Assembly (NCBI GenBank): GCA_045862955.1
Contig: BTVI01000029.1
Coordinates: 1 to 42,202 of the forward strand
Length of the DNA stretch: 42,202 nucleotides
Direction of reading: 5' to 3'
From: Fimbriimonadales bacterium
GTDB lineage: Bacteria > Armatimonadota > Fimbriimonadia > Fimbriimonadales > JABRVX01
Both the position numbers and the translations under genes were made by a program. Below, one piece after another: positions 12,785-17,457 of the stretch. Under the pieces are notes generated by a model that had not been told where the DNA came from, did not search any database, and worked only from the letters and a program-made list of their open reading frames with translations. The first letter of the stretch is position 1. Each line of letters opens with the position of its first letter.

Positions 12785-13822
12785 TCAGGGGCCGAAGCGG
12801 ACCTCGCGTGCGCCGGAAGTCACCTCGCCAATCTGCCAGACGTTCTCGCCGCTCTCTCGCAGCCGTGCCACCACGGACCCGGCCTCCGACCGCTCGACCG
12901 CCATAACGAGGCCCACCCCGAGGTTGAACACGTGGAGCATCTCGCGGTCCGGCACGCCACCCGCCCGGATGAGGCCGAAGAGGGGTGGCTCCTGCCAGCT
13001 ATTGCGGTCCACGAACGCTGCGCAGCCGGACGGAAGCATTCGAGGTACGTTGTCCACGAGCCCGCCGCCGGTGATGTGCGCGATGCCTTTCACCGGTCCT
13101 CCGGGTCCGAGAAGGGGAGACACCGAGGCAAGATAGCAGCGATGGGTGGCGAGCAGGGCATCTCTGGGCGTCACGCCGAGTTGGGGGTGAATGTCGTCGG
13201 GCGCTAACGTGAGGATCTCGAATAGCACCCGCCGGGCGAGCGTGTAGCCGTTCGTGTGCAGTCCGGTGCTGGCGAGAGCGATGAGCGCGTCTCCGGGCCG
13301 GATGTCTGGCCTCGGAAGTCGGGCGGCCTTCGGCACCACTCCGACGATGCATCCTGCAAGCTCGAATGCCCCGTGACAGTACACGTCCGGCATCTCCGCT
13401 GTCTCTCCCCCGAGCAACGCGCAGCCCACCGCCTCGCACGCCGCCGCGATGCCTTTCAGCACATACTGAAATGCGTGCGGGTCGATGGTGGAGGCGCCGA
13501 AGTAGTCGAGGAGGAAGAGTGGGCGCGCGCCCTGCGCCAGGATATCGTTGACACAGTGATGGACGATGTCTGCACCGATGCCTTCGAAGTGCCGAGGGGT
13601 GACCGCGAGCATTGTCTTCGTGCCGACGCCGTCTATGCTCGCCACGAGGACGGGGGCATCGATCCCTGGGAAGTGAGCCAGATACATGCCTCCGAACTCG
13701 CCGACGTCGGAGAGAACGTTCGGGCCGTGGGTGTTGCGGATCAGGTTCTCGACCAGCGTAAGGCCCTCTTTCGCTCGGGCAATGTCTACACCGGCGGCTG
13801 CATAGTATGTGGGCTTCTCCAA
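12785..13822 (-). CDS. purM: Phosphoribosylformylglycinamidine cyclo-ligase (AIR synthase)
   Basis: YAAAGVD, IDGVGTK, GGETAEMP, STGLHTNGY, AHITGGG and FNLGVG motifs. Confidence 0.97.
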   Translation of the reverse strand: MEKPTYYAAAGVDIARAKEGLTLVENLIRNTHGPNVLSDVGEFGGMYLAHFPGIDAPVLVASIDGVGTKTMLAVTPRHFEGIGADIVHHCVNDILAQGARPLFLLDYFGASTIDPHAFQYVLKGIAAACEAVGCALLGGETAEMPDVYCHGAFELAGCIVGVVPKAARLPRPDIRPGDALIALASTGLHTNGYTLARRVLFEILTLAPDDIHPQLGVTPRDALLATHRCYLASVSPLLGPGGPVKGIAHITGGGLVDNVPRMLPSGCAAFVDRNSWQEPPLFGLIRAGGVPDREMLHVFNLGVGLVMAVERSEAGSVVARLRESGENVWQIGEVTSGAREVRFGP

Positions 13823-13825
13823 ACC

Positions 13826-15289
13826 TCAGCCCTCTCGCGAGGCCTGCACCAACGTGCGGCGGTCTTCTCGCACCTTTTCGAAAACATCCTTGGCCACCAG
13901 CTTCTCGCGCGGGATGGGCACAGGGTAGTCGCCGGTGAAGCACGCAGTGCAGTGTCGGCCGGGACCATCTCCCACCGCTTCGATTAGCCCCTGGACGCTG
14001 AGGTACCCCAGGGTGTCCGCGCCTAGCTTCGCGCGGATCTCGTCCACGGAGTAGTTGGCGGCGATCAGCTCCTTATGCGTGGCCATGTCGATCCCGTAGT
14101 AGCAGGGATGGCGGATCGGCGGAGCGGTGATGCGTAGGTGCACCTCGGCGGCGCCCGCCTCGCGCACCAGTCGCACGATTTGTCCTGTCGTCGTACCCCT
14201 TACGATGCTGTCGTCCACCAGCACGATGCGCTTGCCTTCGATGTATTCGGCCAGGGGGTTCAACTTCAGCCGTACCCCCATCGCCCGCATCCGCTGTTCC
14301 GGTTCGATGAAGGTGCGGTGGATGTAGCGGCTTTTGATGAGAGCCTCCTGGAACGGGATGCCGGAGTGTCTGCTGAAGCCGATGGCAGCGGGGACGCCGG
14401 TATCGGGAACCGGCACCACCATGTCGGCATCGGCGGGGTGCTCCTCGGCCAGGCGCGCGCCCATTCGCTGCCTGGCCCGGTGAAGCAGGTGCCCACCCAT
14501 CACGCTATCGGGGCGTGCGAAGTAGATCGCCTCGAATACGCACAGGCGGTCTTGGCACGGCAGTCCACTTCGAACGCTCCGCAGGCCGTGTTCGCTGATG
14601 ATGACGACCTCCCCAGGCTTCACGTCGCGTACCAGCTTGGCGCGTACGGGCCCGAACGCACAAGACTCGGAAGCGAGCACCCAGTCGCCTTCGGTTTTTC
14701 CAATGGACAGCGGTCGGATTCCGTTCGGGTCGCGCACGCCGATGAGCTGCGTTGGGGTGAGGATGACGAGGGAGAACGCTCCTTGCAAGCGTTCGACAGT
14801 TCGAAGAACCGCTCGCCCGATGCTCTCCTCATCCGAATGCATGATCAGCTTGGCGATCACCTCGCTATCGCTCGTCGAGTCGAACTCGATGCCCTTGGCT
14901 TGGAGCTCGAGACGCAAGGCGTGGGCATTGATCAGGTTTCCGTTGTGCACCACGGCGATGGAGCCGACGTTGCTCGCGCAGAAGATGGGCTGGGCGTTCT
15001 GCAAGACGCTGGAACCGGTGGTCGAATAGCGGGTGTGCCCGACAGCAATGTGACCCTCGAGGCCTGCTAGCGTCTCCTCATTGAACACCTGCGTGACCAG
15101 CCCCATGCCCTTGAACATCCGGATAGTTCTGCCATCGGAAGCGGCGATGCCCGCGCTCTCCTGCCCTCGATGTTGGAGGTTGAACAGGCCGAAGAAGGCG
15201 AGGCGGGCTGCATCGGATGCGCGGGAGTACATGGCGAAGATGCCGCACTCCTCTTTCGGATGGTCGAGGTCTCGTGGCTCGACTACGAT
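13826..15289 (-). CDS. purF: Amidophosphoribosyltransferase with propeptide and probable non-canonical ATC start
   Basis: EE-CGIF (Cys codon 15245-15247), LQHRGQESAG, GHTRYST, HNGN, VDDSIVRGTT and Fe-S cysteines (CVFE, CYYG, CTAC). The product is certain; the start codon is inferred (see findings). Confidence 0.95.
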   Translation of the reverse strand: MVVEPRDLDHPKEECGIFAMYSRASDAARLAFFGLFNLQHRGQESAGIAASDGRTIRMFKGMGLVTQVFNEETLAGLEGHIAVGHTRYSTTGSSVLQNAQPIFCASNVGSIAVVHNGNLINAHALRLELQAKGIEFDSTSDSEVIAKLIMHSDEESIGRAVLRTVERLQGAFSLVILTPTQLIGVRDPNGIRPLSIGKTEGDWVLASESCAFGPVRAKLVRDVKPGEVVIISEHGLRSVRSGLPCQDRLCVFEAIYFARPDSVMGGHLLHRARQRMGARLAEEHPADADMVVPVPDTGVPAAIGFSRHSGIPFQEALIKSRYIHRTFIEPEQRMRAMGVRLKLNPLAEYIEGKRIVLVDDSIVRGTTTGQIVRLVREAGAAEVHLRITAPPIRHPCYYGIDMATHKELIAANYSVDEIRAKLGADTLGYLSVQGLIEAVGDGPGRHCTACFTGDYPVPIPREKLVAKDVFEKVREDRRTLVQASREG

Positions 15290-15333
15290 CGCCTTTTCCT
15301 CCCCTCATTGGCGCGATAGGACTAGGGGTTTCG

Positions 15334-15342
15334 AGTATAGCA
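15334..15342 (-). promoter_or_regulatory. Extended -10 promoter of purF-purM
   Basis: TGCTATACT on the minus strand about 45 nt upstream of the ATC. Confidence 0.6.
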
Positions 15343-15375
15343 CGCGGAAGCCGATTCTCCCGACAGGCCCGGGGG

Positions 15376-15405
15376 TTGACAGGAGAGAGCGGGTCCTGCT
15401 AGAAT
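15376..15405 (+). promoter_or_regulatory. Strong sigma70 promoter with no normal downstream gene
   Basis: TTGACA, N18, TAGAAT with a TG extension. Confidence 0.7.
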
Positions 15406-15410
15406 AACGT

Positions 15411-15500
15411 GTGGACACCAAGGATGGTGGGAACGAGGGAAGCCGCACGGATGCGGCTCCACCTTATTCCGCGGCGGTAAGGGCTGTCGTCGCTCGTTAC
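15411..15500 (+). ncRNA. Candidate small structured RNA (or sORF transcript)
   Basis: Follows the orphan promoter. Stems CACCA/TGGTG, and AACGAG/CTCGTT enclosing AGCCGCA/TGCGGCT and CCTTA/TAAGG. Confidence 0.4.
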
Positions 15501-16270
15501 GGCCCGCCGACATCCAACGCCTCCCGCACGCACTGCTCTGCCGCACTCACGATCCTATCTGCCGCGCCGAAGCTCTGTGGCCCGAGACCGTCGAGCCGGA
15601 TCCGCCACAAGTAGTCGCCCAGGTCCCGGTATCTGGCGCACAGACCGCGCCTCGCCAGCATCTTTACCCATCGCCTTCGCGGCTCCCTATCGTCCCGCAG
15701 CGCACCGGGGAGAAACCCCAACTCGATGCCCACGACAGGCAAATCGAAGCGCCTCAGCGCTGAGCACGGCAGGTTGTCGGCACCGCCTCCGTCCATGAGC
15801 CGCTGCCCGCCGACACGCACGGGCGAGAACGCCAGGGGAAGCGCACACGAAGCAGCAAGCGCTTGCCATACGGGCAGCTTCGGATCATCCAGGTACAGCG
15901 GCTGCGATGGATCGTGCGTCGGTGCTGCGCACACGATTGTCGGCACCCGACAGTCGCCGAGCGTGGCTGCACCGAACACTCGCCGTAGCTGCCTCCGCAC
16001 GGTCCAGCCTCTGCTCAGCAGAGCGAGTGAGAATGCGGATGGAGTCGCAAGCCGTAGGATATCGTCCAGCGCGTCGAGCCCGCGCAGGGCCCAGGCAGCC
16101 GCAACGATTGCCCCCATACTAGTACCCGCGATCGCTCTGGGTACGAGGCCCCGAGCCTCGAGCTCGCGCAACGCGCCGATGTGGGCAAGCCCGAGCGCCC
16201 CACCGCCACCGAGTGCGAGCGTGAACCCTTTCTCGCGCAAAGCTCGCTCGTCCACGCGCCATGTATACAC
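15497..16270 (-). CDS. Patatin-like phospholipase
   Basis: GGGGALG, GTSMG nucleophile and DGG motifs. Start uncertain. Confidence 0.9.
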   Translation of the reverse strand: MYTWRVDERALREKGFTLALGGGGALGLAHIGALRELEARGLVPRAIAGTSMGAIVAAAWALRGLDALDDILRLATPSAFSLALLSRGWTVRRQLRRVFGAATLGDCRVPTIVCAAPTHDPSQPLYLDDPKLPVWQALAASCALPLAFSPVRVGGQRLMDGGGADNLPCSALRRFDLPVVGIELGFLPGALRDDREPRRRWVKMLARRGLCARYRDLGDYLWRIRLDGLGPQSFGAADRIVSAAEQCVREALDVGGP

Positions 16271-16347
16271 TCTCGAGCGCGAGAGTTGCGGTAGATAGGG
16301 GCGACTCTTCCCTGGACCTGTATACTATCTGAAGCGGAGCGCAGATC

Positions 16348-17457
16348 ATGAGTGGCAGCGCGGGAAATATAGGTGCGCTAGAGCCAAGGGATGTCGTGTG
16401 GCTTCGACAGATCGTGGACGGGAACTTGGCGGGCATTTACCGGACGTCCCTAGACGGTCGCATCCTCTACTGCAACGATTCCTTTGCTCGAATGCTCGGC
16501 TACGACTCGACCGACGAGCTCAAGCGCGCGAAGGCTACCGACCTGTACCCGAGCGTACGGGCGCGCAACTCGTTCCTGAACACGCTTCGGGCACGCGGAT
16601 CGCTGCAGAACTTCGAACTGACCCTGCGACGCCGAGATGGACAGAAGGTCACGGTCCTGGAGAACGTGAGCTTGGTTCGCGGCTCGAACGGCGAAGCAGA
16701 CATCATCCAGGGCACCTCCGTAGACATCACCGAGTTGAAGGCGGTGGAGGCGGCGCTTCGCAAGAGCGAGGAGCAACATCGGTCCCTTGCCGAACGGCTT
16801 CGCGATCTCGCTCAGCACCTTCAGAGGGTTCGTGAGGAGGAGCGGGCCCGAATTGCGCGAGAGCTACACGACGAGCTTGGGCAAGCGCTCACCGCCCTGA
16901 AGCTGGACCTTCATTGGCTCGTCGAGCGCACCTCGGACACCGATCCAGCAACGGAGCGGCTGCGCTCCATGATCGGGCTCGTAGAGCAGACGATTGCGTG
17001 GGTTCGGAGGCTCTGTTCCGACCTGCGCCCCTCCATATTGGATGACCTCGGGCTGGCCGCCGCCATCGCATGGCTTGCGCAGGACGTCGAACGCCGGACG
17101 GGCATTAGGTGTCGCACTTCGGTGTCGAGCGAGCCGGCAGAGGTACCTGGCAACGTCGCAACTGCGGCGTTCCGAATCCTGCAGGAGAGCCTAACGAACG
17201 TCGTAAGACACGCCAACGCCACGGAAGTAGAGATAGCACTGAGCACGCGCGGTGGCAGGTTGGTGATGGAGGTTCGCGACAACGGGAGGGGTTTCCACCA
17301 GGCGAGACGGCGACTCGGGGTGTTCGGAGTTGCGGGGATGCAAGAGAGGGCGTTGGAACTCGGCGGCAAGCTGCGCGTGATCTCACGTAAGGGGGTTGGC
17401 ACGCGCGTCCGGCTCACCGTGCCACTCTCGCAGGGCGACGAGGTGGTGCTGCGGTGA
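16348..17457 (+). CDS. PAS-domain sensor histidine kinase (HisKA_3, NarX/UhpB-like)
   Basis: PAS domain, EEERARIARELHDELGQ, FRILQESLTNVVRHA, DNGRGF and GVGTRV. Confidence 0.95.
   Translation: MSGSAGNIGALEPRDVVWLRQIVDGNLAGIYRTSLDGRILYCNDSFARMLGYDSTDELKRAKATDLYPSVRARNSFLNTLRARGSLQNFELTLRRRDGQKVTVLENVSLVRGSNGEADIIQGTSVDITELKAVEAALRKSEEQHRSLAERLRDLAQHLQRVREEERARIARELHDELGQALTALKLDLHWLVERTSDTDPATERLRSMIGLVEQTIAWVRRLCSDLRPSILDDLGLAAAIAWLAQDVERRTGIRCRTSVSSEPAEVPGNVATAAFRILQESLTNVVRHANATEVEIALSTRGGRLVMEVRDNGRGFHQARRRLGVFGVAGMQERALELGGKLRVISRKGVGTRVRLTVPLSQGDEVVLR

Follow-up and report, generated by a model that had tools for sequence, protein, structure and literature searches.

A conserved ATC codon is the probable start of purF in one family of Fimbriimonadia

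We analysed a window of 42,202 nucleotides from a Fimbriimonadales genome (G000) and found that purF, on its minus strand, very probably starts translation at an ATC codon, as judged by sequence comparison. AUC initiation had been proposed in a first-pass annotation of this DNA and is now well supported, because canonical codons are excluded upstream of the catalytic cysteine and the ATC is conserved in four lineages of the home family (f1).

The purF frame and its ATC codon

Coordinates are those of the window.

13826..15289, minus strand: purF (amidophosphoribosyltransferase), 487 codons counted from the ATC, frame open throughout
15289-15287, minus strand: inferred start codon ATC, 14 codons before Cys1
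15248..15289, minus strand: 14-residue propeptide ending KEE, with the KEE/CG junction in the sequence
15247-15245, minus strand: catalytic Cys1 codon, aligned with residue 1 of PDB 1gph and 1ao0
15297..15306, minus strand: Shine-Dalgarno (SD) sequence GAGGGGAGGA, with GGAGG 8 nt upstream of the ATC
15307-15305, minus strand: in-frame TGA, a strain polymorphism
15308-15306, minus strand: out-of-frame ATG, a strain polymorphism
15334..15342, minus strand: predicted extended -10 promoter element TG-c-TATACT, identical in G000, G001, L034 and G002
12785..13822, minus strand: purM (TIGR00878, 307 bits, cut-off 236), starting 3 nt past the purF stop

The gene is the single full-length purF copy of the genome. 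It scored 522.6 bits against TIGR01134 (cut-off 350; profile 1-432, alignment from residue 15), exceeding the equivalog cut-off and so scoring as a Bacillus-type PurF, and it carries the short propeptide ending in EE before Cys1 that also marks this type. Propeptides of similar kind, 11-17 residues long, are common among PurF homologues. Alignments to PDB 1gph, PDB 1ao0 and TIGR01134 all begin at PurF residue 15, the Cys, bearing out the original argument that translation has to include this residue. The start in the open reading frame track, ATG 15232, lies five codons downstream of the Cys codon, and the resulting protein joins the TIGR01134 profile only at position 10. The need to translate Cys1 makes purF an unusually hard test of the start codon.

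ATG, GTG and TTG are absent between the in-frame stop and Cys1, and ATC is the sole near-cognate codon between the TGA and Cys1 in this genome. The motif GGGGAGGA (15304-15297, minus strand) lies 7 nt ahead of the ATC. The SD duplex with the 3' end of the genome's own 16S was computed at -11.2 kcal/mol, and the SD-ATC spacing falls in the 4-10 nt peak of ATG genes of the same genome. The layout is that of infC and pcnB, an AUN codon at SD spacing without a canonical alternative. On re-reading the minus strand, the ATC, the SD 7 nt before it, the TGA, the ATG at 15308, the Cys codon, CCCCT and AGGGG were all as first described. The extended -10 element went unflagged by our sigma-70 scan, which requires a -35, and its function as a promoter is putative.

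Conservation of the ATC codon within the family

Family f1 comprises three genomes in GTDB. An SD followed by ATC was found in all four f1 lineages seen (PurF 72-94% identical), a sample drawn from two genera and made up entirely of kin: the window genome itself, G001 (protein 94% identical), the metagenome contig L034 (93% over 150 residues) and G002, from another genus (72%). TG-c-TATACT, a G-rich SD and the ATC are common to G001, L034 and G002, with the ATC 14 or 15 codons before the Cys. The relatives thus retain the codon first proposed for the window.

Distances from GGAGG to ATC were 8, 7, 7 and 5 nt (G000, G001, L034 and G002, respectively), and SD duplex energies across the four lineages ranged from -10.1 to -11.2 kcal/mol. 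In none of the four do the 40 codons ahead of Cys1 include a canonical start, and in-frame stops occur at codon -20 in G000, -51 in L034 and -22 in G002. Alternative near-cognates are an ATA at -13 in G001 and a second ATC at -12 in G002. The ATC was retained while leader length, spacer and propeptide vary among the lineages; between G000 and G001 the propeptide shows two synonymous and two replacement changes. A further protein (P0010), which stands outside these DNA-based counts, is 81% identical over residues 1-120 and has Ile 14 residues ahead of the Cys.

Outgroups and genome-wide controls

A canonical codon was present upstream in 125/125 scored purF loci of other Armatimonadota, among them 46/46 distinct Fimbriimonadia loci outside f1 and 79/79 loci from the rest of the phylum (80 fetched, 79 scored; 78 with the codon within 44 codons, L484 farther upstream). 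One row of these counts, L019, comes from an unpublished genome (G036). The presence of a canonical codon upstream is no proof that it is used, so hidden ATC-type cases may exist in the outgroups. Three of 158 diverse purF loci from outside the family lacked a canonical codon within 40 codons; these were rejected as further cases, L090 being truncated at a contig end and L124 and L146 having long extensions. On this comparison the ATC state of purF is derived and confined to family f1.

The other Fimbriimonadia purF genes mostly look leaderless, with a -10-like hexamer 3-9 nt before GTG, ATG or TTG in 32/46 loci (L004-L030, L378-L404), a permissive pattern counted without a shuffle control.

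Start codon use is not relaxed across the lineage, as in-frame ATC, ATT and ATA behind an SD showed no genome-wide excess. Near predicted starts, ATC stood behind a strong SD in 120/2778 cases in frame and 81/2131 out of frame; for ATG the figures were 657/3035 and 76/1883. When 776 orthologue pairs of G000 and G002 were compared, covering 1.96 of about 3.9 Mb of G002, only purF and infC had an SD with ATC, ATT or ATA at matched positions and no canonical alternative. Since none of 14 control codon sets produced more than one match, two matches are no statistical excess by count alone. This strict scan missed RNase E/G, probably owing to a distant TTG in G002. A first scan of 659 pairs had lost purF at the edge of the fetched stretch, and most of its 35 pairs without a canonical codon were discarded as onsets within the upstream gene. 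Scans of single genomes were noisy, giving 12 candidates in one (infC missed) and 69 in another, mostly artefacts including SelD with UGA.

As a positive control, infC had an extended SD with ATC, ATT or ATA in 31/33 loci scored by eye (G000:C19 L194; L238-L267, L298, L299), so the initiation machinery and its probable feedback look ordinary; the infC of the window genome has an SD and ATC, as purF does. RNase E/G (G000:C14:36789-38519, minus strand; L268-L297) is a candidate third SD-led near-cognate start, with ATA or ATC in 11/30 loci (f1, f3, f4), ATG or TTG in 10/30 (f5) and no clear assignment for 9/30 (f2). The lysS gene was rejected as a conserved case: it has ATG in G000 (G000:C67) and G001, and an SD-led ATA only in G002 (L306).

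Two further observations came from these scans. In G000 and G002 alike, CTG follows a strong SD in a gene whose product has a pilin-like N-terminus (G000:C3 near 87309, minus strand; L313). A SelD-like frame carries an in-frame TGA that the two genomes share in position (G000:C2 near 121118, minus strand; L375), as selenocysteine would lead one to expect.

A weak start as a set-point for PurF

By analogy with infC, the ATC is probably a weak start that holds PurF at a low, IF3-sensitive set-point rather than a means of sensing purines directly. Transcription from the extended -10 would give a leader of about 37 nt, whose strong SD would present the ATC at normal spacing, as read from the sequence. 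If E. coli is a guide, fMet-tRNA would decode AUC at a few per cent of the AUG efficiency, with IF3 discriminating against it. The 14-residue propeptide would then be removed and Cys1 exposed, as in Bacillus-type PurF, where propeptide processing exposes Cys1. The purF-purM gap is 3 nt in G000, 2 nt in G001 and 1 nt in G002; purM is likely to be translationally coupled to purF, and at 1-3 nt downstream it would inherit the limit set on purF.

In E. coli, AUC has been reported to work at 1-2% of AUG and to give an N-terminal Met (10.1101/063800), and IF3 rejects AUU and AUC (PMC5499595). In S. aureus, AUA and AUU starts with extended SDs reached about 10% of AUG, and ccpN was medium-dependent, reaching 30% in rich medium (PMC13009471). 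Rare starts do not always limit yield, however: PMC5499595 cites an AUC reporter down only 2-3 fold and notes that context can offset the codon. Given these counterexamples and the very strong SD, a low amount of PurF is uncertain.

It is unlikely that the ATC is real but nearly neutral, fixed once in the f1 ancestor, perhaps by drift, when the gene gained an SD leader, with the strong SD compensating so that output stays near normal without regulation. Such a history would fit the single origin limited to f1, the strength of the SD, the standing of ATC as a common Ile codon in this genome and the capacity of context to override codon effects (PMC5499595). However, one C>G change would restore ATG, yet ATC persists to 72% protein identity in a flanking leader that has been rewritten, and purF has this state in common with infC, whose near-cognate start has an established function.

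Searches for purine sensing in the leader

15328-15324, minus strand: CCCCT, complementary to AGGGG at 15305-15301 (minus strand)

Pairing of CCCCT with the AGGGG of the SD had been suggested in the first pass. The two are indeed complementary, and they are fixed in G000, G001 and L034 while the 18-nt spacer between them diverges; CCCCT is absent in G002. A purine switch mirroring that of pyrC could be built on them. At high ATP, transcription would start at the A before CCCCT and the 5' end would pair with AGGGG, hiding the SD; at low purines it would start in the C run and leave the SD free, with the AUC amplifying the effect. We consider this improbable, although the constancy of both motifs in the three genus lineages and the position of the A and CCCC, 5-9 nt past the -10, would suit it, and a mechanism of this kind is described for pyrC and pyrD (PMC6524683). 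Like those nucleotide biosynthesis genes, purF has a C run near the predicted 5' end that is complementary to the SD. The G002 lineage, however, lacks the CCCCT element yet keeps the ATC. Moving the transcription start from +5 to +8 lowers the opening energy by just 1.0 (G000), 0.65 (G001), 1.6 (L034) and 0.06 (G002) kcal/mol, the predicted pairing differs among G000, G001 and L034, and the leaders are predicted to be no more stably folded than shuffled sequences (z +0.3 to +0.9). Unlike in pyrC and pyrD, no stable SD-sequestering hairpin dependent on the first 2-3 nucleotides was predicted for purF, and the element is not conserved across f1.

Purine riboswitches, ZTP riboswitches (150 candidates scored per genome) and the Bacillus-type PurR domain (PuR_N) were not found in any of the five genomes searched, a result that would leave room for a leader-based switch, and an Rfam search of 13000-17000 (E<=5) returned no match. 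Purine-responsive control of purF is not supported. The earlier proposal of translational control of purine synthesis thus survives in a weak sense, as a start that is probably inefficient and IF3-sensitive; its purine-sensing part found no element in these searches.

Alternative starts and the public annotation

The public protein cluster has eight members: three of 468 residues and one of 430, all four without Cys1, and four of 540 residues, whose starts lie inside the divergent small RNA candidate described below. If the ATC is the start, all eight are miscalled, four lacking Cys1 and four carrying a 53-residue extension.

Translation from ATG 15232 would yield a PurF that lacks Cys1 and depends on ammonia, which is plausible where reactors are rich in ammonium; Cys1 mutants of PurF keep ammonia-dependent activity. 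G000, G001 and L034 all have this codon, and public annotation starts three of the eight cluster members there. It is nevertheless a very improbable start: it lacks an SD (-1.7 kcal/mol), G002 carries CTG there, and the propeptide and ECG have been preserved amid synonymous changes.

Initiation farther upstream would require a +1 frameshift after the out-of-frame ATG, or would use a GTG some 67 codons ahead of Cys1; the TGA of G000 would then be a recent nonsense change. The 540-residue calls for four of the eight cluster members agree with it, and the stretch is open in G001 and in X4/X5-type strains, where two compensating indels preserve length. It is hard to credit all the same. Between the two indels the reading frame of the extension varies, and stops close it in G000, L034 and G002; its start lies ahead of the conserved -10 element, and it crosses the small RNA in antisense. 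The upstream ATG is peculiar to the G000 strain type: a change at position 15307 in six runs (X4, X5, X9, X11, X12 and X13) removes it together with the in-frame TGA, and neither occurs in G001, L034 or G002. As these are strain polymorphisms, the frameshift reading fails, and their restriction to one strain type leaves them unable to carry a conserved mechanism. The out-of-frame ATG that overlaps the SD, to which the first pass had drawn attention, is present in the window but is not conserved.

The ATC at 15287-15289 was unchanged in contigs from the same six studies (record 11 for X11), X1 having been excluded as a possible source; neither the change tallies of X4 and X5 nor the full 20-change list of X11 record 11 leaves room for ATC>ATG. 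A sequencing or assembly error for ATG is refuted by these independent assemblies, with the identical ATC in three other lineages.

A neighbouring small RNA candidate

15411-15498, plus strand: candidate Csr/Rsm-like small RNA, 88 nt, with five GGA, two of them in CA(A/C)GGA hairpin loops
15376..15405, plus strand: near-consensus sigma-70-type promoter of the small RNA, 11/12 consensus bases, with TG, back-to-back with the purF promoter

The promoter scan found this one promoter against a shuffle mean of 0.1, and both hexamer positions are kept in the four f1 loci. With several GGA motifs, hairpin loops and a predicted stand-alone transcript, the candidate has the make-up of a Csr/Rsm antagonist, and its CA(A/C)GGA loops nearly match the CsrA consensus of PMC4347634. 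The two paired changes seen in G002 are compensatory. In an alignment of 15 rows, one of them doubtful (L498), pairing holds for 92% of cells and 27 cells vary on both sides (0/500 shuffles); the alignment had been fitted to the model. Loop indels among the homologues argue against coding.

A covariance model, with 105 candidates scored per genome, found the RNA in 13/41 Fimbriimonadia genomes (f1 3/3, f2 3/13, f5 7/12, none in f3 or f4). The homologues (L485-L497) have promoter-like sequence upstream and varied neighbours. Rfam Csr/Rsm thresholds were not reached, the best score being 23.9 bits against a threshold of 44 for PrrB_RsmZ (E 0.063, in one of seven loci). Both csrA and fliW were present in all five genomes searched. 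From its sequence the RNA resembles antagonists of CsrA/RsmA, here in bacteria that carry FliW as well. It adjoins purF only in genus g1; a link to purF was therefore rejected and the RNA treated as a separate lead.

CsrA-antagonist RNAs have been described mainly from Gammaproteobacteria, and their occurrence as anti-correlated with that of FliW (PMC4894983). A CsrB-like RNA is mentioned for B. subtilis, so an RNA antagonist alongside FliW has precedent. No report of a Csr-type RNA in Armatimonadota was found in a literature search of incomplete coverage. The candidate matters in its own right as a possible CsrA antagonist outside Gammaproteobacteria, in FliW-carrying genomes.

Two side observations concern the same type of motif and the same locus. 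An inverted-repeat-like stretch of G000:C33 (minus strand, near strand offset 25172) holds two more CANGGATG motifs 50 nt apart; it may be a repeat element, or else another RNA that binds CsrA. A patatin-like phospholipase gene (window 15497-16270, minus strand), with a weak RssA match below cut-off, has a 3' end that meets the terminal hairpin of the small RNA.

Relation to known systems and significance

SD-led AUN starts are an already known class, and purF here is a further member. The AUU, AUC and AUA starts of infC and the AUU of E. coli pcnB (PMC5499595, PMC2830850) are likewise SD-led and conserved among relatives. PurF differs in not being IF3, and so has no autoregulatory loop; its ATC state is limited to one family and its IF3 sensitivity is putative. 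The ATC start of Deinococcus dnaA, shown by N-terminal proteomics (PMC2830850), is a parallel: there too a core gene uses this codon, which its lineage conserves and annotation missed. It concerns another gene and phylum, and it was established from peptides, whereas for purF the Cys1 constraint points to the start. In Staphylococcus aureus and Bacillus subtilis, ccpN (AUA), cvfC1 (AUU) and citZ (AUA) combine a strong SD with a weak start in metabolic genes, as purF does (PMC13009471); their output was measured, while purF, a biosynthetic enzyme, is known here from its sequence.

The best structural matches were Bacillus subtilis-type PurF (PDB 1gph and 1ao0; E about 1e-141), which align from Cys1 and share the propeptide ending in EE. 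Four cysteines also align with these structures, and we take them to be the [4Fe-4S] ligand positions. The purF studied here is set apart by its 14-residue propeptide and non-canonical start.

No report of a non-canonical purF start was found in our literature search, whose coverage was incomplete, especially for subscription papers and one supplement of annotated ATC genes. Confirmed non-canonical bacterial starts are few. A start-codon regulon in Fimbriimonadia is a possible but doubtful extension: infC, RNase E/G and, in f1, purF-purM would answer to the ratio of free IF3 to ribosomes, a ratio that would govern purine synthesis jointly with RNA decay and stand in for PurR or riboswitches. 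Were this so, purF would be a recurrent target of such control. The Cys1 anchor, however, makes detection easier in purF than in other genes, so its recurrence may reflect ascertainment. If the IF3 sensitivity is true, a single codon would tie the committed step of purine synthesis to ribosome status.
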